A DNA stretch of 58,826 nt, filler included, from Jimgerdemannia flammicorona (lineage: Eukaryota), in NCBI GenBank assembly GCA_003990765.1. It is 3 parts of 3 records of this genome, joined end to end, with 100 filler letters (N's around TTAATTAATTAA, not from the genome) between each part and the next. Parts side by side here need not be neighbours in the genome. Positions count along the whole stretch, not along the records: positions 39,291 to 58,826 come from RBNJ01001917.1; 2 more parts are not named here. The stretch is one strand, 5' to 3'. Shown one piece after another: positions 11,991 to 57,787 of this stretch. The notes beneath the pieces are model-generated. The model was not told the origin of the DNA. It saw only the letters and a program-made list of their open reading frames with translations, and did no database searches. Both the position numbers and the translations under genes were made by a program. Each line of letters starts with the position of its first letter. Positions within the stretch are counted from its first letter, which is position 1.

Positions 11991-12118
11991 CACTGCCCCA
12001 CTTGGGCCACAAACTCCAGATCAAGTCTTCAGATTTTTTTTCTTTTATTTTAAAAAAGGTATTAAATATTTCACAAGACCAATCAACTTATCTATAAACT
12101 CTCAGAACCTACTGAATT

Positions 12119-14675: not shown

Positions 14676-14682
14676 ATGTGTT

Positions 14683-14724
<42 letters not shown>

Positions 14725-14728
<4 letters not shown>

Positions 14729-19545: not shown

Positions 19546-19645
19546 NNNNNNNNNNNNNNNNNNNNNNNNNNNNNNNNNNNNNNNNNNNNTTAATTAATTA
19601 ANNNNNNNNNNNNNNNNNNNNNNNNNNNNNNNNNNNNNNNNNNNN
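19546..19645. other. Artificial contig-joining linker
   Basis: N44-TTAATTAATTAA-N44, exactly 100 bp, with stops in all six frames; identical copy at 39191. Confidence 0.95.

Positions 19646-21990: not shown

Positions 21991-21996
<6 letters not shown>
19646..21996 (-). mobile_element. LINE 3' half (RT to 3' UTR), second subfamily
   Basis: FLDQEKAYDRI, GVPQ, WKVGAFADD in ORF 21163-21573(-). 3' UTR matches 31520-31640. Confidence 0.88.
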
Positions 21997-22035
<39 letters not shown>

Positions 22036-22091
22036 GTCACTTGGACTCCACCTTTATTACTCTATGAATAAGTATACAACATCACCACCCA

Positions 22092-25000: not shown

Positions 25001-25744
25001 GAGGCACCAATGTCCAGGCCCATCCCCACTTCCCCCAAAGCACCCCTGTCCCAAAAGTCCCCAGTGATCCAACCATGGACACCATTCTACCTCCAATAAC
25101 TTCTAAACATCAAGGCCCTAGCAGCTGGCTGTCAAAACCCAGTCGATTCTTGTCCCCAGACCCCCTGCCCAATGTGTATAAACCCTTCTATTCCCCCAGC
25201 ACTCCCTGCCAGCATCTACTAGTGCACTTAGTCATTCTACTTCCTCCCATGCCACCAGTCCTCCACTCCTGCTCTCAGCACCTTGTCCTCTATCTGTCCT
25301 ATCCAACAGTATGTCCCGAACCATATTGAAATCTCCCCCAAGTATATCCACTCCTACCTCCGCAAGTATCCCACTCTCCTGTAAGCCTTTCACCCAATCT
25401 ACTCTCTCACCCCGTACCATGGGGCAATAGCAGGAGCCAACTGTAACTGGCTCCCAGCCTGCCCGAATCCACTTACCCCAGACCAGCCTCTCCCCCCAGC
25501 TCTTCACCTCCTGTATCTCCCCTCTGCCTTTCCGAACCAAAATCCCAACCTTGTCCTTCCAAATCGCCACACCTCTCCATTCCTTTATCCATTCCATCCA
25601 ATCAGAATCATCTTCATACCGGACATCCTGCAAGAGGAAGAGATCGGCCTCCAATCCTTTCATCCAAGTAAAAATGTTCCTACATCAAGTAGTGCCCCAT
25701 AACCCATTCACGTTTAAAGAAAAAATGTTGGTTGTACTGTTCAT
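22092..25744 (-). pseudogene. LINE ORF2 (APE endonuclease + reverse transcriptase + Cys/His C-terminus)
   Basis: MNSTTNIFSLNVNGL, DLFLLQD, GGDFN, SDH, PGENGL, WQPIMLLDMDRK, FLDQEKAYDRV, GVPQGDPLSPILY, FADD; several stops and frameshifts. Confidence 0.92.
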
Positions 25745-25774
25745 ATTGGAAGATGTTATGCTGTCAATCAATCT

Positions 25775-27804: not shown

Positions 27805-27886
27805 GAAACTAGTAGCTTGTCTCCAGAAACTGTGTCGAAAGTGTTGCCAAAAGATTGTGTAACCTGAATATTATCAGAGAAAGATG

Positions 27887-30800
27887 ACCATGTCAGAGCA
27901 GAATCTCCTCTCTTTGCACCAGTAAGATCAAGTCACCCAGTCCAGCTACTTGTGGTGGCCCCCACTCCTCTAGTGTATCTGCAATTACTGCCTCATCAGC
28001 ACCCCCTTCTCCCTCACTCCATAGACCCTACTATCTCTCCTTCAAAACCCCTAGGATTTGTTGTATACCATGCACCATATCCCCATCGGCATCCAGGACC
28101 CCATCTCACTGATGTCACACTCTCCTAGCTTTGAAGAGTCTTGATAAGTACTTAGTAGGGCACTCACCCTCCTCAAGCCCCTGCCACTGTAGTCTAGCAG
28201 CCAAACCCCATATATGAGTCTCCTCCTCTTCTCTCAACACCTGTTGTAGTTCTACTATCTCCAATTTCACTCTCTCCATCCTCCAGTCCTCCACCTCATC
28301 AGAAGTGAGCAAATCTGCCCAATCCATTTGCAGTCTCCTCAACCTGCTAGAAGCATACCCCGTGCACTTCCTCCTCTATCTCCCAGCCTCTCTACCAGCC
28401 TCTCTCCAATAGACCCTCGCAGCCTCTTTCAATCTCATCCAATGGACATCTACAGACAAACCCTTATGCCTCTAGATAGAAACCTTCACCTAAATATCCT
28501 CCACCCATGCTTCCCACAACCCCTCCTCAGCCAGCAGGGAGGAGTTAAGGTGCCAATGTCCAGGTCCATCTCCACTCCCCCCAAACTACCCCTGCCCCAA
28601 TAGTCCCCAGTGATCAGACCATGGGCACCACTCCACCTCCAATACTTTCCAAATATCTAAACCCCAGCACTCCACTGTCAGAATCCAGTCAATCCTTGTG
28701 CCCAAGGCATTCACCTAATGTGTGTAGACCCTGGTGTCACCCCACCGTATTCTGCCCATATCCCCCAAGGAGCTCAACTTCTCCACCTCCTCCCATGCAT
28801 CCAGACCACCACTTCTCCCCCCTGCACTCCTCCCTCCATCAGTTCTGTCCAGACACTGATCCCAAACCATATTAAAGTCCCCACCGAGAACATTGACCCC
28901 TTCCTCCAAGAGAACCCCCTCCTCCAGCAGCTCCCTAATCCATGCAGTTCTCTCACCCCTAGCTGCAGGGCAGTAGCAAGAGCCCATCTTCACTGATTCC
29001 CACTCTGGCTGATGCCAATCTCCCCAGACCAAACGATCACCCCAGCTCCTGATTCCCCCCAAATCTCCTTTACCCTTCCTCACCAGAATTGCTACTTTTC
29101 CAAACCAAGTAGTAGCCCCACCCCATTCTCTAGTCCACTCTACCTGATCATCCTCATCCTCACACTGAACATCCTGTAGTAAAAAGAGATCAGTCTCCAA
29201 TCCCTTGAGCTAAGTAAAAATGTTCTTATACTGTCCAGAGCCTCTTAACCCATTCACATTCAAAGAGAAAATGTTGGTTATACTGTTCATAAGGAATAAT
29301 GATATAGTATGATTCCATCCTCTACAAGTCCATATTCAGTTCCTCCTGCACCAAGTCCAAGACATGCTCAGCAGCTAGTTCTCTTTCTCCAGCTTTCTGT
29401 GCCTCCAACCCTCCCAGAAGTTCTACCATTGCCCCATCTTCTCACTCCTCAAAGTCCTCATGATACTCCAGACAGGCCTCCTGCCAGAGCTGCAAACCAT
29501 GACGTTCTGCCCAACAGTAGGCCACCCACTCACCAGTGACCACTACCAGCTCTGCCTTCCTCACCTCATCAATCTCATATCCCTTCTCCTCTAGGAAGAT
29601 TGCAAGAATCTCTACCTTCAATACCTCCACCATTCCATCACTGCACAGAATCCACTCCCAATGCTCCTTAGGCATTACTTGCAGATCCACTTCTTCCAAT
29701 ACCTCTGCTGCAAGGTTGTCCATCACCTTGCTCATTCACAATAAGTTCCCCACCTCCTTCCCTCCTGGAGTCCCCAGCCACCCTGTATCCAACATTATGG
29801 TGTCAGCTCCAACACTGGCAGCCTTATTCCACTCCTCCTCAGGGATATCCACCAGCTCATCCTTGCCAACCGCCACCACCTGGCCCCCTTTTGCCACATC
29901 AGGGACCCCAAAGTGCACTTGCTGGGCCCCCTGCATCAGTACATCCTCTGTCATCCCTCTCTTCCCAGCCAGGCCCCTCCTGATAAGTGGGGGAGTGGCA
30001 TCCAACTCCTGCTCCCAAACTTCGAAGGTACCATCAGCATATGGATTCTTGTCCAGCATCTTCCCAGCTCCTGCCTCCTTCACCTCCACCTCCTCTCCTC
30101 CTTTGCTAGCCCAGACACTGGCTTTGATACCCCCAGACTCCTCAGCTCCAATCAACTTCTTTGACACCCCTCCTGTCATACTTGCCAATAGCTCCCTCTG
30201 CCTCCTGCATCCCTGGGCCCACTCCCACTGCTTCCTGTCAGTATGGATATGCTTTCCATCCACAACCTCCAGATGCATTGACTCCTCATACAGCTTCCAG
30301 GCTTTTGCCCTCCTCTCTACAGCACCACTCAGCTCCTCCAGCACCTTCAACAAGTCCTCCTCCTCCTCTTCACTCTCTTTCACCCTCAATACCTTACAGA
30401 TGAAGGCTCCACACATCAGCACCAAGGGCCAGTCACTCAGCTTCCCTGTGGCCTCCTTCCCCGCTAGCTGAATCCTGACATCGATGTCACCCATCCTGAA
30501 TGTCATCCCCTCCCACATCTGAAAGCCAATGTCCACAACATCACCATACTCTACCATCACCTCCTCCACCCTCCTCCTAGTCTCCTCTTTAGTCACTATG
30601 GGCACTCTCCTCACCAGAAGTTGCACCACCCTGAGGTCCCACCTCAAGCACCTCACTATGGGGACCACCACCTCCCCAACCACTACTCCAGTCCCCAGGG
30701 CCTTGTTCAGTGGGCCCGCCTCCTCAAAGCCCACCTCAACCCCCTCCAGACCCTTCAAGAACTTCACTGAGACTGCCCCAGCCACCTGCTTCAAAATAAG

Positions 30801-31433
30801 CTCCAGGACCATCCTCACCATCACTGCCAAGCCCCAGAAGTACAAGATAGCCACAAACTCCAAGATCGACTTCTTGAGCAATGGAGCCACTACCAGTCCT
30901 GTTATACCATCTGCCAGGTCCCCCTTCCACTTCAGGAACCTCTGCCCCCCCTGTCCATCAGCCATCACATCTCTTTTTTTTCCTGATTTGTCATCACGCC
31001 ACCATCAGCAGTTCTGCCACTACCCCCAGCAGCTACTCCACTTCCTCCACCTCCCACCAGTGAAGGCCCCACTCCCCCAGCATCTCCAGCCTTCTACTTC
31101 CCCTTCTCTCCTGCCTGTCTGCTGCGGGCTCCCCTCGGCCAACCCCCAGTCCTCAGCATGTCTGCAAAGCTCCTTTCCTGCTGCCCTTCAGCCCCCCCAT
31201 CAGTGCTGCTTCTACTGCCCAAGCTGTCCTGTCCACTTGAGCTGCTGAAAGACCCCATCCCCAGCCCATACCCTCTCCCAACATGCTGCCAGTCAAAGGC
31301 CCCAGGTCTGCCTGACCTAGTACACATGTCAGCTTGCTTGCTGGTTGATATTACCTTAATATCTTTCTCTAATAAACAAGTTGAAAGTGTGTTGGAAAAG
31401 TGTGTGTAATGTGAATTGTAGTAGAGAAAGATG
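27887..31433 (-). mobile_element. LINE 5' half (ORF1 + APE), diverged subfamily
   Basis: ORF 29736-30968(-) is an ORF1 homologue; ORF 28715-29200(-) is APE with GGDFN; 5' end CATCTTTCTC at 31433. Confidence 0.88.
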
Positions 31434-31489
31434 TCTGACAATATTCCTAAGTATATCCCACTTGCTTTCATCTAGAACCTTGTCTGTAT
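31434..31489 (-). mobile_element. 56-bp sliver of hAT transposase between two LINEs
   Basis: TCTGACAATATTCCTAAGTATATCCCACTTGCTTTCATCTAGA matches ~13087-13130. Confidence 0.7.
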
Positions 31490-31873
31490 TTTTTTTTTTA
31501 TTTTTTATTTTTTTATTATAGTCACTCAGACTCCTTTCTTTATTAATATACCCATCTATCCTCTATAAAATACACTGTGCCCACCCCTATCTGATCCCCC
31601 TAGGGGGTCTCCCCCCTCCCCCCACCCTCTCTCAATAAAAGACCACTTTGTCATTCACCATTGCCACCCTCCCACTACTCTATTCACAGATCCCTTCTAC
31701 CAGACAGCAATGTTGCCCACCCTGGGGACCCCAACCAACCCACTACCCTGTCAGCAAATCTCTCAACAACTCCTCCCATCTTAACAACTTCTTCTGTATA
31801 CCTATCTATTGCTCCTTCTCAAAAACAAAGAGCCAATGTCCAGCCAGCCCTACCTATACAGCTAAAACTCACC
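31490..31873 (-). mobile_element. 5'-truncated LINE 3' end with poly(A)
   Basis: T-rich tail followed by sequence matching 19650-20000. Confidence 0.8.
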
Positions 31874-32725
31874 TGAAGTCACCCCTCAGGCTATCTCTGA
31901 AGCCTCTACTCCTGAGACCTCTGAAGCTACCACTGCTTAAGCCCAAGCTACTCCCTAAGCCTAAGCTACTGCCTAAGTCTAAGCCACTGCTCTAGTCTAA
32001 GTTACTGTCACCACCTAAGCTGCTGCCTAAGTCTAAGCCTAAGCTTAAGTCTAAGCCCAAGCTGCTATCTAAGCCCAAGCCTAAGTCTAAGCTACTGCTC
32101 AAGCTACTGCCTAAGCCCAAGCTACTGCCTAAGCTCAAGCTATTACTACTGTCTAAGCTACCATTCTAAAAACTAAAGATCAATCTCATATAAGCTGTAA
32201 AAATTGAAAAACTATAGCATACCCTTCTCAAAATCTATCAATAACTCAATCTATTGATTTCTAATCTTCTGTTGAGAAAGAGGTTATTATATAATAATAC
32301 TTACCAGATAGCTACTGCTATAGCTAGATATAGCTGAGATCAGAACTAAGACTGTATATGAGAATTTTGAAAATATATATCAGTTATATATAAATTTCAA
32401 TTAGGTGTGAATTTTAGTTATATGTAAATTTCAGTTATATGTTTATGTATGAATTTTAAGTGATGTATCTTTTAAATAAAAAAATAAAAAACTAATTATC
32501 TTATAATATAAACTACTGAAAATCTCAAATTAATATTCAATTTAATTTGACTAATTCAAATAGGACCTTCAATTCAATTCAAATCAAATCAAATCAGACC
32601 TTAATTTGATTTGAATTTAATTTAATTTGAATTCAATTTTAATATAAAAATCTCCAATTTGATTTAATTTGAATTAATTCCAATTTGATTCAATTCAAAT
32701 TGATTCAATTTATTTGAGAGCACTA
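31874..32725. mobile_element. hAT-related terminal fragment with low-complexity (CTAAGC)n-like internal region
   Basis: Ends ...TTTGAGAGCACTA (TIR) at 32725; 32590-32725 matches MITE 2260-2390. Confidence 0.55.
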
Positions 32726-39190: not shown

Positions 39191-39290
39191 NNNNNNNNNN
39201 NNNNNNNNNNNNNNNNNNNNNNNNNNNNNNNNNNTTAATTAATTAANNNNNNNNNNNNNNNNNNNNNNNNNNNNNNNNNNNNNNNNNNNN
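39191..39290. other. Artificial contig-joining linker
   Basis: N44-TTAATTAATTAA-N44. Confidence 0.95.
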
Positions 39291-39607: not shown

Positions 39608-42600
39608 CTGAGGACAAGACATTATCTTAGGAAAAGCCTGGTTGACCCAGTACAACCCAGACATCAACTGGAGAACCAATGAGGTTAACCTGACCCATGA
39701 GGGCAGAAAGATCACTCTGACACCCCAGGAAGGTACCAACCACCAAGGAATCGAAATCATCTCTGTCATTCAAATGAAGAGACTCTCTCGAAAAAAGGGA
39801 AACACCTACTTCATCTGTACTGTACAAGAAGTCACTGAAGCTATGAGCAGCCCAATTCCAACAGAAGCTCAAGAACTGTTCGAAGAATTCCAAGATGTAT
39901 TCCAAGATCCTCAAGGACTCCCACCCAAGTGCCAAATCCAACATGGAATTGATCTTATTCTAGGATCTGAACCCCCATATAAGAGTATCTACCAACTGGC
40001 TCAACCTGAGCTCAAGACCCTCAAGGATGAATTGACCAAACTACTGGCTCAAGGATACATTGAATCCAGCCGCTCTCCATTTGGAGTCCCAATTCTATTT
40101 GTCAAGAAGAAGGATGGCTCTCTGTGAATGTGTATTGACTACAGAGCCCTCAACAAGATCACTATCAAGAATCAGTATGCCTTGCCCAGGATTGATGAGT
40201 TGCTATACCAAATCTTCAAGGCCAAGACCTTTTCTCTACTGGATTTGCGAAATGACTACTACCAGATTCTCATTGACGAGAAGGACATTGAGAAGACAGC
40301 TTTTTGAACATGGTTTGGACACTACCAGTTCCGAGTCATGCCTTTTGGATTGACCAATGCACCAGCAACATTCCAGTATCTGATGAATGACATCTTTGGA
40401 CCACTCCTCAACATCTGTGTCCTTGTGTATATTGATGATATACTAATCTACAGTGAGATAGTAGAGCTATACTATACCCACCTTAGACAAGTACTGACCC
40501 TTCTGCAAGAACACCAGCTCTATGCCAAGATGAGCAAATGCAAGTTCTACCAAGACCAGATTGAATACCTGGGACACATCATCTCTGCTGAAGGTATCAA
40601 CGTAGACCTCCGAAAAGTATCAGCCCTTAAGGATATCCTTATCCCTACTACCCTCAAGCTACTCCAGCACTTTCTGGGTATTGCCGGTTATTACCGAAGA
40701 TTTATCTAAGGATACTCTACTATTGCAGCCCCATTGACCAGCCTGGCCCATAAAGGAGTGAACATCAAAGCTGAATGGACCCCCGAATGCACTCTGGCTA
40801 TGGACTATCTCAAGAGACTCCTAACCGAGGCCCCAGTGCTAATTGCACCTGATCCTACCAGACCATTCACTCTGACCACAGATGCCTCTGACATTGCTAT
40901 TGGAGTAGTGCTCAGCCAAGAAGACCGCCCAGTGGCCTACCTTTCTCAAAAGCTCAAGCCAGCTGAGACCCGGTATACCACCCATGAGAAGGAACTCCTG
41001 GCTATCGTCACTGCACTCCAGGAATGACGCCATTTCCTCCTAGGATAGCTATTTGTGGCCTACACTGATCACCATGCACTGAGGTATATTCACACACAGC
41101 CCATGCTGACCCACAGACAAGCCCGCTGGATGGAAATCATTGCCAACTTTGATATGGAAATCAAGTATATCCCAGACAAAACCAACCATGTGGCTGATGG
41201 TTTCTCCAGATACATGGAAGATGAACTTGTCTTCATGGTTGAAGTAATTGGAGACCTTACCTAAATAATCAGGAATGGCTACCAGCAAGACAGCCCCCTG
41301 ATGAATTTCCTTCAATTCTGCCAAGACCCAGAGGCTGAGGTTCCAGAACCCATGAGGCAAATGGCCAAGAGATTCACCTACTGTGATGGACTTATCTACA
41401 GGGACCATGACAGAGTGGTTGTACCCAACAATGATACTCTGCGACTCAAGATCATGCAGGAACTCTATGATACTCCTGCAGCAGAACACTTTGGTTTTGA
41501 AAAGACCTACAACCTCCTCTCAAGAGAGTTCTACTGGCCAAAGATGACCAAGGATATCAAAGACTTTGTGGCCTCATGCGAGATATGCCAAAGGTTCAAA
41601 AGTGGTAACAAGCTACCAGCAGGACTCCTGCAACCCTTGCCTATCCCGAGCCACAATTGGGACCAGATTGCAATGGATTTCATTGTCCAACTCCCCAAGA
41701 CCAAGGCAGGATGGGATGCCATCGTGGTATTCGTGGACCGCCTAAGTAAACAAGCCCATTTTGCACCCACCAAGACTACCGCTACAGCACCAGAGATTGC
41801 CGAGATCTTTCTCAACCAAGTATTCAGGCTACATGGCATGCCTAGCACCATTGTATCTGACCGAGATGCCAAGTTCACAAGCAACTTCTGGAAGGCATTT
41901 TTCTCCCTCCATGAAACCAAGCTGAAGTTCTCTACTGCCTACCACCCTCAGACTGATGGTCAAACCGAGCGAACCAACAGGACCCTCAAACAGATGCTTA
42001 GCATCTTCTGCTGTTACAAGCAAAATGACTGGGACAAGTACCTAGCCCATGCTGAGTTTGCCTACAACAACAGTCAGCAAACCTCCACAAAGAAGACTCC
42101 ATTCTTCCTGAACCATGGTCAACACCCAAGGACCCCAAGTACTACTATGAAATCAGCAGTCCCAGCAGTCCAAGATCTGGCCGAGACCATTTCTAACCTC
42201 ACGTGAATGACAAGAGATGCTCTCATAGAAGCACAGGACTACCAGACCAAGTACGCGAACTTGAAGCGAAGAGAAGCCTCCTACAATATCAGTGACAAGG
42301 TCATGCTTAGAACAGACCACCTCCACCCAGACACCCTGGCACAACAACCAGCCAAGAAACTCCGTGCTAGAAGAATTGGACCATACAAGATCGTGGAAAA
42401 AATCAGTGAAGTCAACTACAAGTTGCAACTCCCCCACAATATCCGAGTACACCCAGTATTCCATATTAGCCAATTGGTGGACTACCATGAGAACCCATTC
42501 CCCGAGCGTACAGTTCCACCACTACCCCCAATTAGGATCAATGATCATGAGGAATTCAAAATTGAGGAAGTACTTGACCACAAGGTCTGCAAGTATCCCA

Positions 42601-44212: not shown

Positions 44213-45055
44213 TGTAATAGAACGAGCGAACAGATGGGACGCGACGAACGACGAATGACGAACGACGAACGACGAGCGATCACGTGACCCGGCGAGCGAT
44301 GACGTCATCATACGAACGATGCGCGACATATGAATAACGAACGAACAAACGATGCGAAACGACGCGGAAAACGATATCCAGCTTATCCCCAACAATCGGC
44401 GCCGCAGCCAGCACCGCAGCAACAGTTGCCACAGCAGCTGATCATTGCCTAGTAATTGAGGTCTTGATCACAAAGTTGTTTTTGCCAAAAACCACCTGAC
44501 AAAGGTCGCGATCACAGACCTCATTATAGTTACCAAATTAGTCACTCATACTTAGTCAGAAATCGCGGACCAACTTGTATAAATACCCCCCAGTTTCCAT
44601 CCGAAATAAAGCAGTTTTAGTTCAGTCCTTGATACAAGAATCAAGTCCCCCCCACACACACACATTCCCCTGAGTCTTAGTAATGACATCTAAGTGACTC
44701 TAGTGTTTCTGACTAAACTCCAGAAGTCTAGCTAACTTCTGCCAGAACTGAGACCGGTATATAAATCCCCAAAGACTTAAGTAAACCCATTGAACCTGAA
44801 TTCCAAGGCGAATTCAGTCTGTACTCAACAAAGAACAAGACCCTCGAAATAGGACACAAGAGAAAGACCTTTAAAACAGAAGGCAAACCAGAAAGACCTT
44901 TGAAAGATAAGGCACTACCACTACAACTACTTTAAGCGAGTGCTTCCTCAAACTGAAGGCTTCTTGGTACACATTGTGTACTAAGTCCCTAAGTAATAGT
45001 CCACTTCCCTAATTATCCAAAGGATAAGAGAGGGATAGAAGTGAGAGTTATTACA
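44213..45055 (+). repeat. 3' LTR (843 bp)
   Basis: TGTAATA...TATTACA inverted ends; GTATAAATA at ~44577 and AATAAA at ~44605; CpG-rich U3. Confidence 0.9.
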
Positions 45056-48000
45056 AGGAGGAAGATTTATTGGAGGCGCTGGAGGAGCTGGATGGGGCTG
45101 TGGAACGGCGAGCTAAGGCCTGGAAGACTTTTGAAGAGTCGACGCTCCTGGAGGTGGTGGATGGAAAGAGGATTCGAGTGGACAAGATGCAGTGGGAAAG
45201 GGCTCAGGGGTGGAAGAGGCAGAAGGATTTGCTGGCTAAGCTGGGGGGTGGACAACAGAAGGATGCGAGCATGAAGACAGGTACAGAAGGGGCCAGAGCG
45301 AGTGTCTGGGCTGGTGAGAGGAGTGGGAATGAAGGGGCAGGGTCAGGGAAGGCTAAGGAGGTGAAGATTAGAGACCTATATGCTGATGGCACCTTGGAGA
45401 TTTGGGATGTCAGCTGGGAGAACTCCCCCACCCCTTCCCCTCTAATCAGGTGGGGCCCGGCTTCCAGGAACAAGCCTGGGGAGGATGTGACGATGCTGGG
45501 AACCCAGCAGGTGAAATTCAGCATTCCGGAGGTGTTGGATGGGGACCAAGTAGTGGCGGCAGGGGAGGAGGAACTGGTGGATGTCCCGGAGGTGTGAGAT
45601 GAGGATACGAGTGTGGGAGTGGACACCACAATGCTGGATGGAGGGAGGCCGGCGACCCCTGGTGGAAAGGAGGTGGGGAACCTACTTTGGATGTGCCGGA
45701 TGATGAATAACCTGGTGGCAGAAGAGCTGGGGGAGGTGGACTTGCATAGGATGGGTGACGAGCACTGGATGAGAATTTTGCAGGGAGAAGGAGTGGCGAT
45801 GGCGCTGAAGGCGGAAATTCTTGTGGTGTATCTGGAGGAGGAAGGGTATGAAGTAGATAAGGAGAGGGAGGCAGAGTTGGCGGTGGTTGCTGGGGAGAAG
45901 GCTGAGTACTGTTGGAACAGGTGTCATGGGTTGCAGCTTTGGCAGGAGGCTTGCATCGAGTACTGAGAGGAGTTTGAGGAGAAGGCTGATGAGGAGATAA
46001 ATGAGCTGTTGGCTGGACTGGAGGCTCAGAGGGCTGAAGAGGAGGAGGTGATGGCTGAACATAATCTGGACACGGCACAGGAGGAGAGGGGCATGGAGCA
46101 GTAGGAATTGATTGAGAACCAACTGTATTTTTATTATGAACAGTACAACCAACATTTTTTCTTTGAATGTGAATGGGCTAAGGGGTGCAGTTAGACATAG
46201 GAACATTTTTCTTTGGTTGAAGGGATTGGAGGCCAATCTCTTCCTCTTGCAGGATGTCAGATGTAAGGATGATGCTGATAGAATGGAATGGACTAAGGAA
46301 TGGGGTGGTATGGCGATTTGGAACAGCAAGGTTGGGATTCTGGTTCGGAAAGGCAGAGGGGAGATAAAGGATGTGAGGAGCTGGGGGGAGAGACTGGTCT
46401 GGGGTGAGTGGATCTGAGCAGGTTGGGAGCCAGTCACAGTTGGCTCCTGTTACTGCCCTGTGGTGTGGGGGGAGTGTGTAGATTGAGTGAAAGGGCTCCT
46501 GGAGAGTGGGATCCTTGCTGAAGCTGGGTTGGATATGCTTGGAGGAGATTTCAATATGGTTTGAGATGTACAGCTGGATAGAACTGATGGAGGATGGGGT
46601 GCGGAGAGCAGGAGTGGAGGGTTAGTGACATGGGAGGAGGTTGAAAGGCTAGGAGCACTGGTGGATGCTAGTAGGGAGTACTGGGGGGACAGGAGAGTAT
46701 ATACACATTGGGCTGGAGGTCTGGGGACAAGGATTGACTGGATTCTGATAGCTGACTGTTGGGGCCACGATGTCTGGAAGGCGATAGAGGTAGAATGGTG
46801 TCCATGGTCAGATCACTGGGGCCTCTTGAGATAGGGGTGTTTTGGGGGAAGTGGAGATGGGCCTGGAATTTGGCACCTGAATTCCTCCTTGTTGGATGAT
46901 GAGGTCCGGTGGGAGGAGTGGGCGAAAGACATTCAGCTGAAGGTAGCGAATTGGTGGCAGGAAGGGGCCATGATTGGGGTTTGGTGGATGAGGATGAAAG
47001 AGATGGCCAGAATGTATTGGAGCGAGGTTGGCAGAGTGGCTGGGAAGCAGCGAAGGCAGAAAGTGTGTTGGGCTTCTACTAGATTGGCTAGGCTCCTGGA
47101 GGAGTGGGTGAGACTGGCTGCGGTGGAGGGAGAAGAGGATTGGAGAATAACAAGGGTGAGGATGGAGGTTGGGGAACTGCAACAGGTGCTGCGGGAAGAG
47201 GAAGAGTCAAGGGTGCAAGGCCTGGTGGCATGGCTTCATTGGCAGGGGGTGGAGGAAGGGGAAAGGCCTTCCAAGTTTCTCACAAGGATACTTTGAGCGA
47301 GAAGAGTACAGCAGTGGTGGGAAGGGGTACTTGACTTGGATGATGTACTAGTGCATAGTGTACAGGACATCCTTGGAATGCTGAAGGCGTGATGGAGTGG
47401 ATTGTGGAGTGAGGAGGAGGGTAGGGCAGATGTTACAGCCATTGACCAAACATTAGAAGATTGGCACCCACCACGAGCTGAGGGACTAGGTGACCTGGTG
47501 ATGCCTGTAAAGGAGGATGAGATCTACCAGGTTCTTGCCGCGACAGTCTCGGGCATGGTGCCTGGGGAGGATGGCCTCCCCTGGGATTTCTGGAAGCGAA
47601 TGGTTGGAGTCCCGGGCATATTGGGGGAGTTGACAGTACTGTATGACTCTATATTGCAGTCAGGGAGATGGGTGGGGGAGCAAGACCTTGGGCTGGTGAC
47701 GCTGCTTTATAAGAACAAGGGAAGGCGAGAGGATTGGAAGAACTGGCGGCCGATAATGTTACTAGATATGGACAGGAAGTTGGTGACTAAGATGGTGGTC
47801 GCAAGGCTACAGAAGGTGGCCCAGCAAATTGTGGGTATTGAACAGAGGGGCTTCATAGGGGGTCGGCTCATTAGAGATGGTATGGCCTGAGTACATGGAG
47901 TTATTGAAGGTGCTCGAGCCTGTGGACTGGATGGGCGTCTTGTCTTCTTGGATCAGGAGAAGGCTTATGACCGGGTGCGGCGAGTCTGGCTGGCAAAAGT

Positions 48001-49869
48001 ATTAGATAGAATTGGAGTTCCGGCCCCATTTCAGTTGGTGATGGTCAGCCTACTGGAAAGGAGTAGGGCTGTGCTCGTGTGCAATGGGCATCGAGGGGTG
48101 GCTTTCCCTCTGGGTAGGGGAGTGCCCCAGGGGGACCCACTGTCTCCCATTTTGTATGCTCTTTCCTTGGAACCTCTTATGGACAGGATTTGGCAGAGGA
48201 TCATGGGGCTCTCTATCTATAGAGTTGGCTGGAAGGTTGGAGCCTTTGTGGATGACATGGTGGTTGGTTTGGGAGTGACTGCGGATGTTGAGGAGCTCCA
48301 GAAGACAGTGGAGTGGTATGAGGCGAACTCTGGGGCAAAGCTGAATTGGCATAAGTGTGAAACAATGGTGCTGGGCAATGGCTTGGTGGGCGGAGAAGTT
48401 ATTAGAACAATTGTCCCCACCGGAGAGGCAGTGCGGTACTTGGGCATCTATTTGTCGGTCTATGGGTCTGTTTTGCCCAGGCTGTGGTGGGAGCAGAGAA
48501 TTGGAATTTGGGAGGAGGACCTGCAGGGTTGGGGGGGTAGACACTTCTCTCTGGCAGGAAGGATCTCAATTTTGAATGTTTACTGGCTGCCAAAGCTATG
48601 GTATTTGGCCTATCATCTGGACTTCCCAGCCTGGGTGGTGAAGAGATTAGTGAAGGTGGCCAAAGGATGGGTTTGGGCTGCAGATAGAGTCAGATTGGTT
48701 GGGAGACTCTGTCCCTACTGGTGGCAAGAGGTGGTCTTGAGCTGATGGACTTCCCCAAGAGACTACACTGCTTGCGGGCTTGGTGGCTGAGGAGGGCGGC
48801 AGAGTTGCATGGAGGGGGCTGGGTCCCCTTGCTGCAGAAGATATGGGAGAGGAGGACATCACCTAGAGGCTTGACTGGTGATCTTCTTTCATTAGTTGGG
48901 CTTCAGAATACTGCGCAACTGAGATATAAAGGCTTCTGGTGGGGTATAGCCAAGGGGATACACCGCATTGATATTCGCTGGCAAGGGGATGAGGGGGAGA
49001 GGGCTTGGGGCCTGGTGATGTGGAGATGAGATAGCATTCTGCTGGGAGGCATGCCTTTACTGGAGTTCAACATTCGTGATGGCATCGAATGCCAAAGGGG
49101 ACCGGGCCAGGATCTGTGGCCTAGTGGTTGGCAAGGAGTTGGAATTGGTGAGGAGTGGGACTGGCATGGAGTTTGGACCTGGAGTGCCGCAGTGAAAATT
49201 TGGATGCCGCTGAAGTACTGGATAGTCTGGAAGCATATGCTGAGGAGGAATGTGATGCTTAACTTCCGCTCAGGACACCTTGTTGTTGGGGGCTGCTTTG
49301 ACTGTGAGGAGTGCCATAATGTAGAGCAGGAAGGAGGATTGGTACAGATGCCGGAACATTGGCTAGGGGAGTGTGAGGTGTTGGGAGACTTTTGGCAGGC
49401 CATTGGGGACCGCTTGGGGGTAAGGCATAGGGGTGATGATGTATAAGGGAGGTGGGAGGACCTGAGGGATCGATTGATAGGAGGGGTAGGGAAGGAGTGG
49501 ATTACGCTAGGCTGGGCGTTGGCTATTTGGGTTGGGCTGGCTGGCCACTGGCTATTTGTATTTGAGGAGGGGGAGCGACGGAGCTTGGGGAGCCAGTTGG
49601 CAAGATGGCAGTTCCTTATGGAAGATACCTTGACAGGCTGGTGGTGTGGCAGGGGGGTCAGAGGCGCTACTTAGTGGTGAAAATCTGTGGTCAGAGTGGT
49701 GGAAAAGTTGGAGTTGTTGGTGAAAGGGTGGTCTTTATACATGAAGAGGTGGGGTGGGGCCCCCCGATGGGGATCGGTTAGTGGGTGGGGATATTGTATA
49801 CTTATTCATAGACTGGTAATATAGACGGAGTCCAAGGGACTATAAAAAAAAAAAAAAAAAAAAAAAAAA
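45056..49869 (+). mobile_element. L1-clade-like LINE (ORF1 C-terminal half, ORF2 46136-49781, poly(A))
   Basis: Same APE/RT motifs as 22092-25744; A tail 49844-49869. Confidence 0.92.
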
Positions 49870-50796
49870 GTAAGGATAGAATATTCTTGAAGACAGATAC
49901 CTTTCAAGAGTATATTGATGTCTTCAGCAGAGATGATATATATATTCTAGATACTCAATCTGGTCTTGATAGAACTTATACTTACTCATCTTAGTATAGA
50001 GCTAGTATTCTTACAGAAGGGTCAGTATCTATCTGAGGTAAGTATAGTATAACTCCACTGTTTTGCTATAGATTAGTATATCATCAATATATATAAGGAT
50101 ACAAATATTAAGCAATAGTCTAAAGATATCATTTATCAGATACTAGAATATTGCTAGTATATTGGTTAAACCAAAAGGCATAACTCAGAACTGGTAATCT
50201 AAACTATATTCAGAAAGCTATTATCTTAATGTCCTTCTCATCAATGAGAATCTGGTGATAACTATTTTGCAAGTATAGTAGAGAAAAGGTCTTGGCCTTA
50301 AAGATCTGATACAGCAACTCATCAATCCTAAGCAAGGCATACTGGTTCTTGAGATCTTATTGAGAGTTCAGTAGTTAATATACATTTGCAGAGAGCCATC
50401 CTTCTTAACAAACAGAATAGAGGCTCCAAATAGGGAATGGCTGGGTTCAATATATCCTTGAGCCAGTAGTTTAGTCAACTCATCCTTAAGAATCTTGAGT
50501 TCAGGTTGGGCCAACTGGTAGATACTCTTGTATGGAGGTTTAGATTCTAGAATAAGATCAATTCTATGTTGGATTTGGTGCTTGGGTGGAAGTTCTTTAG
50601 GTTCCTGGAATACATCTTGGAACTCCTCAAACAGTTCTTGGACTTTTGGTAGAATTGGGCTACTTAAGGCTTTAGTGACTTCTTGTATAGTACAGATGAA
50701 GTAGATGTTTTCTTTTTTATAGAAGAGTCTCTTTATTTGAATGGTAGAGAAGATTTCAATTCCTTGATGATTGGTACCTTCTTGGGGTGTCAGAAT
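49870..50796 (-). pseudogene. pol: Gypsy pol (RT) fragment, same family as 39608-42755
   Basis: ORF 50368-50838(-) matches ORF 39642-40127; continues at 57187 after the hAT. Confidence 0.88.
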
Positions 50797-51209
50797 TAGT
50801 GCTCCGAATGAGTCAATTTGAATCAAATCCAGATTCAATTTGTTACATAATGGTTTGATCTAAATTAACTCAGATTAATCTGAATCACCCCATCTGAATT
50901 GCTCCATCTGAATCACCCATCCAAACCACCCCAATCCGAATCACTCAATCCAAATCACTCAATCCAAATCACTCAATCCAAATCACTCAATCTGAATCAC
51001 TCAGTCTGAATCCTCCAATTTAAATCCTCTAATTCAAATTCTCTAATTTGAATTCTTCAATCTGAATCCTCATCTGAATCCTTCAACTGAATCCTCTAAT
51101 CCAAATCCTCCACATGACTCATATGCTAGATATATCCACAATACAATACACACACATGTATATACATATACATACACACATACACATATACATGCAAACA
51201 CACAAACAC

Positions 51210-53832
51210 ATATATCAACAGATCAGTCTTCAACAGTTCACAGTACTGATGATGCTTCAAGTCAAACATCCCTAATAGTTCCACACCTTCCATGTAATCC
51301 TCACTCCAAAATCTAACAATATTGTACTAAGATAGGAGATGATGTTGTTTGTAATTATTATAGGTAAAAAATTAAGATGCACCTATTGACACTTTTTGTT
51401 TTGACACATACATGATATTATTTCATCTACTCCTATAAACTGTATCAGCCAGAAGTTCAAAATGCTTGGTGGTATAACTTTGAACATGAATCAATACATA
51501 AAAGACAAGCACTCTAACAAAATCAAAATGAACATGGAGACAAATAAAATTGACATCCAAGCTGTGGTAGGTATGTTTATCTGATTGCCCAACCATTTCT
51601 ATACCAACAATGCCATTTAATCAAAAATATTTAGCCATACTCTTTAGCAGAATTTCGAAATCGGCTCATTCGCTAGATTGTGTGCACAGACCAGTCATTC
51701 ATAACTATCGAGAGTGATCAATTGCATAGCATCTTTGGTCTTCTCAAGCATGATTTATATTTGCCAAGTGCCAATACTATTCACAAAGATGTCCTGGAGG
51801 CCTATAGAAAGGAGCATGATAATCTCTGCCAGACACTTTAGGTAAAATAAGAGCAGTACCATGACCTTTGCAAGCTGAATTATATAAAAGAGCTCACCAA
51901 TTTAACCTCACATTCAATAAGCAGAATTTGGCAGGCAAAATTTTGTTTATGATCAACACATAGACATCCCTCAATGCAATTTCATTTCTGGGTATTACCA
52001 GTCATTAGATTGACCTTGATTGGCAGCTTAAATTTCTCACCCTCGACTTCATCAAACTTGCTGGCCCTCATTTTGGAGATAATATTACAGATGCTTTTAT
52101 TAATTGTATCCAGGAGCTTGGGATCACAACCAAGGTAAAAAAGGGGGGCTTACCATCAGGTTGGCATTTTGAGGGAGGTCTTAAAATAAACCAGATTTTA
52201 TTGGTTATTTATTTTTACATAAATATGCCAACTGAATATTTCAAGTACAGATTTTGGCTATTATAATAGACAATGCTACAAACAACTCAATATTTTTCCA
52301 AGTTTTAGCAGCTAGCCTCAAACAGGAAAATGTGGCCTTTAGTATAGAAAGCTGTCATATATGATGCCAGGCCCACATACTGAACCTCACTGTTCAGGAT
52401 TATCTTACGTACATAGACAAAACATCCGAGAGAGGAGGGGCCCTGAGTATAGTTTCCAAGCTACGCAAACTGGTTGTGTTGGTCTAATCATCCCCACAAT
52501 GACAAGACAAATTCACTATACAGTGTAGGGCAATCAGTTTAGCTCTGAAAGAGCTCATATTGGATGTCTGTATATGTTGGAACTCAACATTTGCAATGAT
52601 TCAGTGCATGCTGGAGTTTGCTGTAGTATGCATTCTTTTTTTCTTTGGTCAGCTGAAGTAACATGTTTCAGATAACTGAAGATTTATTTTTTAAAAAAAA
52701 AAAAAAAACAAAAAAAGCCAATAGATTCAATGGTGGCTGCTGATAAGGAAATACAGGCTGAGGCTCTAGGTGAAAGTGAGTGGGACATACTTAGGAATAT
52801 TGTCAGAGTTTTGGAAGTAAGTGGTGATTGCTCTGGCTCTACACTTGTTTGTCAGCCTCCACAGTCATTTTGTCTGCCTCTGCACAATGCAACACCTCAC
52901 TACATATAACTGCCAGTGTTTTGATGATTGTATGAAGGATATAGTCAAACAAATGACCCCGACAATAAGCTTGGTAATACCAGTATACAACCTTCTGATT
53001 GACTGGCTAGAGGACAAGCTCAAGGACAGTTGTGGTGATTTACGGTTGAGCCTGGATTAGAGAGATGCCATGGAGGTTGCTCTTAGCAAGCCTAGAAAAT
53101 ATTACTTCTAAACAGATACCACCATATACTCAATCAGTACAGGTATGTCAGTGTTGGTGTATGACCATTGCTCCTTCTAAAACAGAGGAACCTCTGCAAA
53201 AACTCACTCTTTTTTTTTCTTTGAACAGTGCTGGACCCATGCTTAAAGCTACAATACTATAAAGATCAGGGCTGGGAGCAGCACTTTATTGAGAGAACCA
53301 AGTGGGCTGTAATCAAAGTGTACTGGAAAAACTACATGCCACTACAAGGTTCTGGCCAAAGTCTGGATGAATATACCAAGAGATTCCTCCTGTCCCACAT
53401 TTACTTCAGCAGAAAGAGGAAGAGGGAGCCATTAGTAGAAGAGCTGCCATCAATAGACAATCTTACCATTTATCTCACCAGTGACCATGTGATACTGCTG
53501 GAGGGTGCAGAGGTGCTCAACTGATGGAAGGTGGCTTGTCAGGCAGGTTGTCAGGTGGGTTGTCAGGCAGGCATTAGGCGAATTTAACCCACCAATCTAA
53601 CTACCACTCTACCCACTGCTCTACTTACTGGGGCATGCAGCTGCATCAAACAGACTTCCCTAGTCTATGTGGTATGGCTTGGGACTATCTGGCAATTCCT
53701 GCCTCCAGTGCTCCTGTCGAGCAGGTGTACTCAGATGGGGTGGACCTCATTGCCCCAAAGAGGTGTACACTGAATGCTGAGACAATCTGGGCATATATGA
53801 GTCTGAAGTCTTAGTGGGGCTCAGGCCACTAA
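51210..53832 (+). pseudogene. hAT transposase with introns (BED finger, DDE core, C-terminal dimerisation domain)
   Basis: SKI(W)QYC..VVC (BED); (W)TSLNAISFLGITSH; LAGPH; IIDNATNN; WNSTFAM; LDPCLK; MAWDYLAIPASSAPVEQVYS. Confidence 0.9.
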
Positions 53833-53939
53833 AATTTGGTGAGTCCTGGGAGTTCGTGGATGAGTTGGTTGGCCTTGTGGATTATTTAATACCTTTCAAA
53901 AATAATAAAAAGGTTAAAAAATCTGAGGACTCAGCCCAG

Positions 53940-54780
53940 AGTTTGCGGCCCAAGTGGGGCAGTGGTTAGTAGAGAAGGGAGTATATAATATTTATAGCCC
54001 TCTGCTAGCAGCAAGGGGCAGCCCTGAGCTGTCAGTGCCCTGGCAGGTCAGTGGGTAGGCATGGGGTTGGTGGAGGGAGTACACAAAATCTACAGCCCTC
54101 TACTGGCAGCAAGGGGCAGCCCCAAGCCACAAGTGTCCAGGTCAGGGGGGTTGGTGGAGGGGGGGTTGACAGAGGGGGGGGTAGGTGGAGGGAGTGCACA
54201 AAATTTGCAACTCTCTGCCAGCAGCAAGGGACAGCTCCAAGCTGTCAGCACCTGGGTCAGTGGGCAGGATCAGTCAGAGGGGTTGGTGGGTGTGGGGTCA
54301 GCAGAGAGAGTGTACAAAATTTGCAGCCCTATACTGGTAGCAAGGGGCAGCCCCAAGCTACAAGTGTCTGGGATGGGCAGGGTAGGTGGAGGGAGTATAT
54401 AAGATTTGCAGCCCTCTGCCAGTAACATAGGGGCAGCCCAGAGCTGCCAAGGAGTCCAGGACAGAGGGTACTTCTGGTGGTCAGAGAGTGCTTCTGGCAG
54501 TCAGAGGGTATTTTTGGTGGTTGAAGGGTGCTTCCAGTGGTCGAAGTCCACTACAGATTCAGGCCCCATTGCCAGTTTGAGTCTCATGGGCACCCTGGCC
54601 AATAGGGCCCTATATAACAGCTAAGCTAGTACTATAGAAGAGGTGTTCGGCCTAACCCCCTACATAAGACTGCCTAACCTACACAAAATGACTGCCCAAC
54701 CCACACAAAATAACTGCTCAACCCACACAAAATGATTACAAAAGACTGCCTATCTCTCATGAAAGATTACCTAACCCTCA
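53940..54780. repeat. Internal tandem arrays of hAT copy 2 between the two convergent stop codons
   Basis: About five ~100-bp units (AAATTTGCAGCCCTCTGCCAGCAGCAAGGGGCAGCCCCAAGC), then ~20-bp units at 54460-54540 and 54650-54780. Confidence 0.85.
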
Positions 54781-56782
54781 CAAAAACTGCTCCACCTGTC
54801 AGTCCCAGGCCTTGATGAGCCTATCATCTGTTGTAAGTATGAGGACTGTTGTGTCCGAGCTCTCCTCAAAGGTGATGGTGCCATAGTGGTCATGTAGTTG
54901 GAAGAGAACAGCCATGTTGGCTGCAAACAGGACTCTGAAACCATAGGTGAGGTCATACTAGACTCCTCTGCTATCCTCCCAGGTTGGGCCCTTCCTTTTC
55001 AGGACATAAAACATTACTAGGGTAACATTGTTGTCTGTGTGTGTAGGCAGAGAAATGTTGCACCTGACATATTCTGATATGACATGAGCATATGGTTGGG
55101 TGAACCCTTGGCTCAGGACCTCATACTGCCAGGCTGTGCTGGTGGATACCTGCCCTTGGTCCAGCCCTGGGAGCCCTAGCTTGGAAATCTGCCAAAACAG
55201 ATGACAACCAGTCAGTCCTTTTTATATATGGGGGGGCAGAAACTCCCCAGGCTGCAGCACCCCAAAAAAGCAGAGCTCCTCACCTCATATAGCATACTAA
55301 ATTGCACCAAGAATGTATATACAGCTACACCAAGATCACCACTAAGCTGGCCTGCCATATGCTCTATCAATCTACTCAAAGAACCCCAGATTATAGCTGC
55401 CATTGCCACACAGGCCATGTCATACTTACATGTAGTTTGCTCTTCGATGGCACTTCTAAAGTTCTGGTAGGAGTACAGAATCTTGTGTATCCCTGAAATT
55501 ATATCAAAAAAGAGTATGTCGGCAAAGAGTGTGATTTATCTGGAGAGAAGGAAAAAAAAGAGAGATGAGTGTGGGGGATTTCAGAACTTCAGAACTCACT
55601 CTTTACCTGTATTGCAGTATACTCAATTCCCATCCAAACCCCCCCTCCTTGCTTTTTTCACCCCCTCTTTCCTGCCATCTGGTATTTGATGCAATCCTCG
55701 CAAATCTTGTTAATATGGTGGTAAAGCTCATCACCATAGAGATTCCTTACCACCATCATAACCACCTCTCTATATTCATTAATAATGATATAGTTCTCTT
55801 CATCATTGGCTACTCCTGCTGGCCAATGGACCCCTTGGTCAAGAACTATTAGCTCTGATTCGAATGTAGACCCCCAAGTCTTAATAATGATGCTGGTATT
55901 GCTCATGCTGAACATCTTGCCCTCGAATTTCTCTATTTGATCAGATACTGGATATGGTTAAACTCAGGTAATTTTGAACTCTCCTTTCCAATGGAACTGA
56001 GCTCTGATCTGAGAGACCAAGATAAGTATGTAGATGGGTTGCATGCAGATGGGTTACATGTAGATGGATTGCATATGGATGGGTTGCATGCAGATGGGTT
56101 GCATGTAGGTGTGGGTGTTTTTTAGGGGAGACCACATAAAAAATGAAATTAAATAAAACATAGAGATGGGTATTTTAGAAAAAGAGCATAAGTGAGTGAG
56201 CTGCATGCTGACAAGTTGCACGAGTTGCACAAGATTGCTCACGAAGGCTTGCTTCTGTTTCTTTTGAGACCTCCACCACATGATGTATTGACTCAACAGT
56301 TTAGCCACCAAAGGCATACTCTGCAACATCTGCCAGCCTTTCTTCATCTTGATCAGATGTTGTAAATAAAGTTGGCAGATCTCGCCATAGAGCTGTGGAC
56401 CCTAAGAAAAGCACAAGGTGAATTGGGTCATGCTGGGGAAATTTAAATAAATACAAGTAAACAAGTGGTAGCTGAGTGAGCAACCTATATCTACTATTGG
56501 CTGCTCCAAAAAGGCTGCCATGTACATAGCTGTGAGGTCTGTGAATTCTGAGGTCCAAAGGGCTGCCATGAGTTGTTGCCAGAATTCTCCCTTATCCCCA
56601 CCATTGCTACTGCCATCACCATCACCACCACCATCACCATTGCCATCGCCACCACCATCACCACTGCTGTCACTCCTTTGGCTCTCGATGAGCAGCTTGT
56701 ATGCTGCCCATATGAGAAAAAATCTAATATTGTCAGCAGAGAGTGCATTTCTACCTCAAATACTCCCTCTTTTGATGATCAT
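54778..56782 (-). pseudogene. hAT cargo gene: putative TET/JBP-like 2OG-Fe(II) dioxygenase (~5 exons, ~500 aa)
   Basis: Phase-0 GT..AG introns at 55606-55540 and 55283-55189. Last exon reads ISKLGLPGLD...CNISLPTHTDNNVTLVMFYVLKR...SRGV(W)YDLTYGFRVLFAANMAVLFQLHDHYGTIT...DRLIKAW. HxD at 55041-55033; H-Y-G-T at 54888-54877. Family call by motif recognition only. Confidence 0.65.
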
Positions 56783-57186
56783 TGTAGGGTGAAAAATGAG
56801 TAAACTGGACCAACATATGAAATTAAGGGCTGCTGTTTTGTTTGCTCATGATGCAGTAGGAAAGAATAAAGAAAAAAAACAAAGAAAAGAGAGGGAGCAA
56901 AGAAAAAGAACAAAGAAAAGAGAGGGAACAAAAGGAAAGAGTGATGTCACCAAAGTGCAGCAGAAAAAAAAAAACAAGAGTGAAATAAACAAAAGAAAGA
57001 GTGATGCTACTAAAGATTTCAATCTAAATGGATTAATCCAGATAGATCAATCTGGATGGATCAATCTGGATCAATCTGGATCAATCTGGATCAGATCATG
57101 AGACCAATCCAAGTTGATTCGAATCTATCACATGACAAACCTGAATTGAATCTCATCTGGATCAACTCCATCTATTTGGAGCACTA

Positions 57187-57787
57187 GTCAGGGTGATCTT
57201 TCTGTCTTCATAGGTCAGATTAACTACATTGGTCCTCTAGTTGATATCTGGGTTATACTGGGTTAACCAGGCTTTTTCTAGAACTATGTCTTGTCCTAAA
57301 AGGTCTATAATACTGAAGTCCAACTTCTCTTAATATTTGTCAATTTTGAGTAATAGGTCCTTGGCAGACTTGCTATTATCAAAGATAACACTTCTTTTTT
57401 CAGTAGCTGGTCTGCTTTAGACTCCAATCCTTCTAGCAGTCTTGGTGCTGATATAGTTTCTACTGTTCAGTAGGACATTGACATTCTATCTATAAACTTG
57501 GTCTGTGAACTTAATGTAACTGTTCTCCTTCTTGATAGTGTTGAGCACTTCATTCTCATTATTCCAATTGCTGTCAGTCTTCTCAAAGTCAGTCTCTTCC
57601 CATCTTTCACAAAGAGGATAGTCTTGTTTGGATTCCTCAGTTTGTTGGGCTTAGTGTCTTTCAGAATTGATTTTGAAAACCTTAAAGAGATATGCATGGC
57701 ATTCACTAATATATTCTATATAGTATATTCAGATAGAATGAGAGAATCATCTATATAATGTATAACTATCTGTAATTCTCTTGTATC
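57187..57787 (-). pseudogene. Gypsy gag end / protease fragment (continuation of 49870-50796)
   Basis: 57187-57300 is the reverse complement of a 39610-39720 homologue; decayed LL(D)S(G) protease site at ~57470. Confidence 0.8.

Follow-up and report, generated by a model that had tools for sequence, protein, structure and literature searches.

Positions 50797–57186 of a 58,826-bp stretch of DNA from Jimgerdemannia flammicorona (GenBank assembly GCA_003990765.1; hereafter the window, 42.5% G+C) hold a canonical DNA transposon of the Ac-like hAT kind that is now dead; it is flanked by an 8-bp target site duplication (TSD) and belongs to a family with two convergent genes. The right half of the element contains, downstream of the transposase gene, a real intron-containing gene of ∼2 kb on the minus strand, and this cargo gene probably encodes a very divergent fungal Tet-like (TET/JBP-related) Fe(II)/2-oxoglutarate (2OG) dioxygenase. 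A preliminary description of the same DNA had read the interval as a hAT element carrying a TET/JBP-like gene, a candidate 'self-demethylating' transposon. The account below gives the evidence for the element, for the gene and for the nature of its product, and the points on which that description had to be revised.

A hAT transposon with two convergent genes

The element is complete in structure and dead in coding (Table 1). It lies within a Gypsy-like retroelement, of which the window contains another, paralogous copy that lacks the insertion. When the flanks are projected onto this empty site, the left one would end at position 39714 and the right one begins at 39721; the two flanks thus overlap by exactly 8 bp, which proves the 8-bp TSD. 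The two TSD copies, GTCAGAAT and GTCAGGGT, are equal at six of the eight positions, and both mismatches are G/A transitions, as is nearly all of the decay in the window.

The transposase gene was recognized from its C-terminus and from its translations. Pfam matches the Dimer_Tnp_hAT domain (PF05699) in the last 78 codons, at 53578–53814 (E = 2.2e-9, 37.4 bits with a cut-off of 21.4), and the same domain was found again in a read-through frame of the transposase (E = 9e-8). This dimerization domain is the only part so matched, the catalytic core (RNase-H-like DDE) having no Pfam match at E ≤ 0.1 in three read-through frames. The translations show by eye the stretches IIDNATNN, CQAHILNL, WNSTF and LDPCLK, which we take to be Ac-like motifs. 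The pairing of the terminal inverted repeats (TIRs), the empty site and the dimerization domain support the earlier reading of the interval as a complete hAT with 13-bp TIRs and an 8-bp TSD.

A BLAST search of the window with the element revealed a second, more decayed copy (copy 2) that is 82.7% identical to it over 5794 aligned bases. Copy 2 is collinear with the element across the transposase, the intergenic repeats and the entire minus-strand gene, up to a common TIR, and because the collinearity holds throughout, the two-gene layout is a property of the family. The right TIR of copy 2, TAGTGCTCTGAAT (8657–8669), has one mismatch to the terminus of the element; its left part is lost at ∼14790, where it is interrupted by sequence resembling long interspersed nuclear elements (LINEs).

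Between the two convergent genes lie the array of ∼100-bp repeats listed in Table 1 and a 22-bp × 3.9 array (GCCTAACCCACACAAAATGACT) at 54650–54735, both of which recur in copy 2. Elsewhere in the window, a TIR-like end at 32713–32725 (reverse complement TAGTGCTCTCAAA) is accompanied by AATTCAAAT-type subterminal repeats at 32500–32725, like those at the left end of the present element. It may represent a third, deleted copy, a rearranged end or the left end that copy 2 has lost; the 8-mer beside it, CTATATAC, matches the 8-mer at the right end of copy 2, ATCAGCAG, at two of eight positions. An internal hAT fragment of 59 bp is present at 31434–31491.

The minus-strand gene and its homologues

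The gene model was built from tblastn matches of the homologues described below to the window, combined with GT..AG sites. The homologues mark three collinear coding blocks in both hAT copies. The spliced model of four exons comprises 367 codons with five in-frame stops and no frameshift, and it aligns to residues 9–337 of P0005, a full-length homologue, with 89 of 317 positions identical (28%; z = 57.7 against shuffles). Introns 2 and 3 share codon position and phase with both introns of an intact homologous gene on a metagenome contig (L001). The homologues and the shared intron positions thus confirm that the right half of the hAT is a multi-exon gene on the minus strand, as the preliminary description had it.

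The exon boundaries given there fared less well. The stretch 56782–56490, proposed as exon 1, was rejected as Gly/Asp-rich low complexity, (GGTGAT)n, with no homology support, and of the exon proposed next only the last 75 nt (56317–56243) survive, as a tentative exon 1 with a weak z of 3.4. The last two introns had both been called phase-0 GT..AG introns; this holds for intron 3, whereas the middle intron is of phase 1 and has its acceptor at 55494–55493, not at 55539. At the in-frame TAG of exon 4 (54960–54958), two of the five homologues have Trp and three have Phe, and copy 2 has TGG; at the TGA of the same exon (54801–54799), P0003 has Trp. Upstream of the supported ATG, at 56599–56663, there is a (CCATCA)n/(GGTGAT)n microsatellite that is 24 nt shorter in copy 2. 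A Pfam match to TrAA12 in the low-complexity open reading frame (ORF) was below threshold and was dismissed as spurious.

Homologues were sought with exon 4 as the query (P0001, its one stop entered as X) in a phmmer search against 1.84 billion representatives. Five matches had E ≤ 1e-3, and three of these are true relatives: P0003 (136 aa, 79% identical to exon 4, E = 1.5e-58), P0004 (134 aa, 48%, E = 2.4e-22) and the full-length P0005 (374 aa, 33%, E = 4.9e-9). The other two, P0006 and P0007, were judged spurious, the matches to these repetitive proteins consisting of 10 and 5 short stretches, respectively. A further relative, P0008 (259 aa, 46% identical), was retrieved with P0005. According to a cluster look-up, P0003, P0004, P0005 and P0008 are all unnamed singletons. 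Metagenome contigs were also scanned by pattern, and of the 92 stretches matched, two, L001 and L002 (99% identical to each other), encode relatives; L001:733–1956 is an intact three-exon homologue of 351 codons. The two contigs have 34% G+C and a CpG observed/expected ratio of 1.2, that is, no CpG decay. No transposase could be recognized on the 3.7-kb L001 contig or on L002, and the neighbouring ORFs of L001 had no Pfam match; the family therefore occurs outside any recognizable hAT.

Word-indexed homology searches returned none of 194 candidates with a score for the exon-4 fragment (longer proteins only) and nothing but the query itself for a seven-row alignment. Hypothetical proteins of Gordonia phages were rejected as relatives, the tblastn matches of P0005 to 50,697 phage records being chance ones with E ≥ 7. 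A look-up of sequencing runs listed a single run, of soil-metagenome DNA, with a word share of 0.07, and no RNA run.

The motif alignment comprises six sequences (P0003, the window exon, P0004, P0005, P0008 and exon 3 of L001) and has 16 invariant columns, including the H and D of an HxD motif and the G that follows a distal His. The HxD motif reads HTD or HVD in all six. The distal His is kept in five of five homologues, ∼52 residues past the first His (spacing taken by eye on P0005), and is replaced by Tyr (TAT) in both copies in the window. The sole invariant Arg stands 15 residues past the HxD His. An HxD with a distal His some 50 residues further on had been noted from the window alone; the distal His that the homologues conserve is the residue that has become Tyr here, and the accompanying guess that HYGT had arisen from HHGT by a CAT>TAT change was right, because all five homologues have His where the window has Tyr.

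Nature of the encoded protein

Taking the Pfam, PDB, AlphaFold2 (AF2) and ESM Atlas results together, we infer that the cargo protein very probably has the fold of a 2OG-Fe(II) oxygenase and that, with less assurance but still on balance, it falls in the Tet-like clade. By Atlas features, P0005 matches best (0.96; 209 of 256 shared) a cluster from Basidiomycota, 15% of whose members carry PF20515. For P0003, with named clusters only, the feature search gave two clusters of 'Tet-like 2OG-Fe(II) oxygenase' at 0.91 (178 and 167 shared), in which 72% and 100% of the members carry PF20515, followed by a phage cluster at 0.88 with Tet_JBP on 11% of its members. Structural comparison of the Atlas model of P0003 (pLDDT 0.69) gave 10 neighbour rows, with TM 0.54–0.63; seven of the 10 bear a family name or a cluster family, and all seven are 2OG-Fe(II) oxygenases, among them prolyl 4-hydroxylase, 2OG-FeII_Oxy_3, 2OG-FeII_Oxy_5 and a cluster in which 28% of the members carry Tet_JBP.

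A series of results weighs against this assignment. Pfam searches that covered window fragments, read-through frames, P0003, P0004, P0005 and the L001 exons, with E limits of 0.1–10, gave no match of any member to Tet_JBP (PF12851), 2OG-FeII_Oxy_6 (PF20515), any other 2OG family or indeed any Pfam family, so that the profile match which the preliminary description had looked to as a check did not appear. Searches of PDB sequences at E ≤ 10 were likewise empty, both for P0005 and for the family profile. The AF2 models are of low confidence, with a mean pLDDT of 38.3 for P0005 (7 rows) and 47.0 for P0003 (6 rows). The P0003 model is all-beta with a C-terminal helix and retrieves mostly chains of the cupin/double-stranded beta-helix (DSBH) type, with prolyl hydroxylases lower; because the model is too poor, these fold searches are weak and non-significant, with no Foldseek match at E ≤ 0.001 (best 1.8e-2), no VIA chain at Z ≥ 8 (best 7.4, in a range common for unrelated chains) and no TET chain among the rows listed. 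The Atlas recognition value of P0005, 2142, is below the bar of 2300, and the two Atlas searches of one query (features and structure) count as one source of evidence. TET2 binds 2OG through an Arg past the distal His; no Arg after the distal His is conserved in the six-sequence alignment. When 5-residue motifs of the family were looked up literally in the TET proteins of Table S1 of a recent survey, five of the six had no match and the sixth match was unrelated (Kojima, 2025; Biology 14:1741; PMC12730594, in part). Two results on the decay of the copies, given in the next section, point in the same direction. The TET/JBP-like reading of the preliminary description is nevertheless the best supported one, indirectly, through the Atlas neighbours and the HxD...H spacing.

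The strongest alternative, which we regard as unlikely, is that the protein is a DSBH 2OG-Fe(II) oxygenase and not a TET/JBP-type base oxidase: a prolyl/lysyl hydroxylase- or AlkB-like enzyme, useful to the element in some other way or merely captured. The structural neighbours of P0003 in the Atlas do not discriminate, the Tet_JBP, prolyl-4-hydroxylase, 2OG-FeII_Oxy_3 and 2OG-FeII_Oxy_5 rows all falling in the same range of TM; prolyl hydroxylases (4j25, 5iav, PHD2) are listed for the AF2 model and TET chains are not; and the silence of the Tet_JBP and PF20515 profiles and the failure to find a conserved Arg past the distal His would suit such an enzyme as well. The feature neighbours argue otherwise, as among those that bear a family, for P0005 and P0003 alike, PF20515 'Tet-like' comes first and phage Tet_JBP clusters follow. 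Moreover, the core D-x-G..F..G-V..N..H-G-[TS] of P0005 matches by eye that of the PE-type TET proteins at 9 of 36 positions in an ungapped comparison, five invariant columns included, and the TET/JBP type is the only 2OG oxygenase among the fungal DNA-transposon cargo found in the literature (PMC12730594, in part).

Decay of the two copies and function of the cargo

The differences between the two copies are ∼95% transitions, alike in exons, introns and flanks, and exon identity (77.5–86.1%) is no higher than that of introns and flanks (77.2–83.8%). Sites in CpG context differ between the copies in 235 of 286 cases (82%), those in CpA, CpC and CpT context in 27%, 16% and 7%. The CpG observed/expected ratio is 0.17 for the window, 0.10 for the element at 50797–57186 (copy 1) and 0.01 for copy 2; for the window, the ratios of TpG and CpA are 1.19 and 1.09. 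Hypermutation specific to TCG was considered and rejected, all four NCG contexts being struck alike (0.44–0.49). With TCG struck no more than the rest, the decay is better explained by methylation and deamination of CpG in general than by hypermutation of the TCG type, which is attributed to Pucciniomycotina (PMC12730594, discussion, in part).

With five in-frame stops and Tyr in place of the distal His, the enzyme of copy 1 cannot work. Copy 2 has additionally lost the ATG, one donor and one acceptor, and carries a 4-bp insertion inside HTD. The stops at 55966–55964 and 55660–55658 are TGA in copy 2 as well, and at two others copy 2 has CAA and TGG. Two stops and the His>Tyr change being common to both copies, the source element that they share may already have had a dead oxygenase, although the shared stops, of the CGA>TGA type, could be parallel strikes at saturated CpGs or, equally, an inheritance from a defective source. 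There is no sign of purifying selection on the oxygenase gene between the two hAT copies: the coding sequence (CDS) shows 122 nonsynonymous and 65 synonymous differences, and 117 and 70 are expected from mutational context alone, so that the copies have evidently decayed neutrally since insertion.

The missing signal of selection, the shared lesions and the lack of a recognizable transposase on the L001 and L002 contigs are all compatible with a further alternative, in which the element has picked up a host gene or an accessory passenger that does no catalysis for it and whose HxD...H is vestigial or forms no metal site. We consider this improbable, and more so than a hydroxylase- or AlkB-like enzyme. 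Homologues with no more than 28–53% identity all retain the HxD, the distal His and 14 other columns unchanged; four independent metagenome-derived relatives have intact ORFs; and shared stops of the CGA>TGA type are expected from parallel strikes, because the CpG sites are near saturation. It is very improbable indeed that the oxygenase gene is a separate element nested in the hAT, a notion for which we found no supporting point: both copies are collinear over the whole right half to the common TIR, the eight inverted-repeat pairs in 54300–57186 (12–18 nt, 78–93% complementary) include none that brackets the gene with flanking duplications, such as the gene's own TIRs and TSD envisaged in the preliminary description, in the sole gene-spanning pair (I4) one arm falls in the unsupported low-complexity stretch that precedes the CDS, and transposon-borne TET genes likewise have no termini or TSDs of their own (PMC12730594, section 4.1, in part).

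On the preferred interpretation, a Tet-like dioxygenase, the protein of an intact element would bind Fe(II) in a double-stranded beta-helix, with the two HxD residues His and Asp and the His ∼52 residues downstream as ligands, and would use 2OG and O2 to oxidize 5-methylcytosine (5mC), or another modified base, on DNA. Such oxidation would work against silencing by methylation and against the C>T decay at CpG to which this genome subjects its repeats. Substrate and benefit to the transposon are proposed from the family and from its published analogues. CcTET converts 5mC to 5-hydroxymethylcytosine (5hmC), 5-formylcytosine (5fC) and 5-carboxylcytosine (5caC) (summarized in PMC12730594, in part). 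The family may in this sense have been 'self-demethylating'; both copies in the window are inactivated.

Features of the element and surrounding sequence

The coordinates of the features are collected in Table 1. The remainder of the window is rich in retroelements. Nested LINE-like retroelements without long terminal repeats occupy 14790–31300 and 45000–48800, one of them interrupting hAT copy 2; RVT_1 matches were found at 23315–24298 (E = 4.9e-32) and 47891–48745 (E = 1.3e-20), and a Gypsy integrase (Integrase_H2C2, rve) at 41265–42206. The runs of N (two pairs of 44 nt, 19546–19645 and 39191–39290) lie within retroelement sequence. No host gene was recognizable within the window.

Table 1. 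Features of the hAT element, its cargo gene and its second copy in the window.
Feature	Position	Strand	Remarks
Left TSD copy, GTCAGAAT	50789–50796	.	8 bp; paralogous empty site is GTCAGAGT
Left TIR, TAGTGCTCCGAAT	50797–50809	+	12/13 complementary to right end
Left subterminal array, AATCTGAATCCTCC-like	50877–51112	+	14-bp units, ∼17 copies
Decayed hAT transposase gene	51677–53814	+	Many stops; Pfam PF05699 at C-terminus and translations
Intergenic array of degenerate direct repeats	53964–54470	.	∼100 bp each; between the two convergent genes; from self-matches
Exon 4, core with HTD and former His (Tyr)	55188–54781	-	In-frame TAG 54960–54958, TGA 54801–54799
Tyr codon (TAT) at conserved distal His position	54885–54883	-	TAT also in copy 2
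His-Thr-Asp codons, HxD motif	55041–55033	-	H and D invariant in six aligned sequences; putative iron-binding role
Intron 3	55283–55189	-	GT..AG, phase 0
Exon 3	55492–55284	-	Phase-1 start; intron position and phase as in L001
Intron 2	55599–55493	-	GT..AG, phase 1
Exon 2	56008–55600	-	In-frame stops TGA 55966–55964, TAA 55960–55958, TGA 55660–55658
Intron 1	56242–56009	-	GT..AG, phase 0; contains 15-bp × 5.4 minisatellite
Exon 1 (tentative)	56317–56243	-	ATG at 56317–56315; MPLVAKLL... vs MPAKLL... of P0005; z 3.4
Right subterminal short repeats, TGGATCAATC units	57019–57098	+	
Right TIR, reverse complement TAGTGCTCCAAAT	57174–57186	-	Pairs 12/13 with left TIR
Right TSD copy, GTCAGGGT	57187–57194	.	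8 bp
Paralogous empty site, single GTCAGAGT (reverse complement)	39714–39721	.	Other copy of host Gypsy
Copy 2 of hAT and oxygenase element, more decayed	8657–14725	-	Reverse orientation; BLAST of element vs window

Comparison with known systems

Like Ac, Tam3 and the fungal hAT elements, the transposon described here has an 8-bp TSD, short TIRs that start with TAG, subterminal short repeats and a C-terminal dimerization domain in its transposase. Unlike an ordinary Ac-like hAT, which carries a transposase only, it devotes ∼2 kb of its right half to a second, convergent gene. An association of TET/JBP genes with Kyakuja-Dileera-Zisupton (KDZ)/Plavaka transposons in Basidiomycota was reportedly described by Iyer et al. 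in 2014. The present family resembles that system in that Tet-like oxygenase genes are tied to DNA transposons, and differs from it in the transposase superfamily, which here is hAT. The KDZ/Plavaka-associated TET/JBP proteins match Pfam profiles of the Tet_JBP/PF20515 type, unlike the cargo family of the present element, which matches neither.

The preliminary description knew of no TET/JBP gene inside a hAT element. Such genes have in fact been published: TET/JBP genes occur inside complete DNA transposons of 11 lineages, including 20 TET+ hAT7 families across six Puccinia species, in which TET is proposed to let the transposon evade methylation of cytosine and hypermutation of the C>T type (Kojima, 2025; PMC12730594, in part). 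This is the only relevant paper found in the literature searched, where PF20515 occurs in no paper at all. The TET+ hAT7 elements of Puccinia and the present one are alike in being fungal hAT-superfamily transposons with a TET/JBP-type dioxygenase gene beside the transposase; they differ in four respects. The TSD is 7 bp in hAT7 and 8 bp here, which places the element outside hAT7, and hAT7 termini start with CAACGGTGGG or CAACACTGGG, whereas those of the present element start with TAGTGCTCC. The hAT7 TET is of the PU type (GG.MW.IGWRK...), a motif set that is absent here, and where its position is described its gene precedes the transposase and is read in the same direction, whereas the cargo gene here is downstream and convergent (PMC12730594, in part).

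A transposon that brings its own demethylase counters genome defence by methylation, and the printed catalogue of such transposons is recent, a single paper of 2025. Both this concept and the association with hAT elements are already in print, and the present case opens no new question. It is possible, if rather doubtful, that the cargo gene stands for a fourth type of Tet-like dioxygenase borne by transposons, as yet without a name: related to the PE type, bearing HxD, escaping the Pfam Tet_JBP and PF20515 profiles, and captured independently by a canonical 8-bp-TSD hAT lineage outside the hAT7/PU system of Puccinia. Since intact, intron-bearing relatives exist in an AT-rich genome with no CpG depletion (L001), the enzyme family of such a fourth type would extend beyond the three fungal lineages covered in print. 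The present element, if confirmed, would represent an independent capture of an oxygenase by an ordinary 8-bp-TSD hAT, and the oxygenase would be of a type missed by standard profiles, so that surveys by Pfam or BLAST would under-count cargo of this sort. It would further exemplify a clear victory of the host's CpG-directed decay.

A further published counterpart is the PE-type TET/JBP, which is transposon-borne in Agaricus bisporus, Laccaria, Gymnopus and Pezizomycetes, and for which HHpred gave E-values of 1.4 and 19, the likeness to CMD1, NgTET and CcTET being visible only through AlphaFold DB models (PMC12730594, in part). The cargo family shares with the PE type a strong divergence that lets both slip past ordinary searches with sequence profiles, and also the ungapped core that runs from the D-x-G turn to H-G-[TS], where the positions identical by eye include D-x-G, G-V, N and H-G-[TS]. 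It departs from the PE type in the metal-binding motif itself: the hallmark of PE is HxE, whereas all six aligned members of the present family have HxD (PMC12730594, in part).

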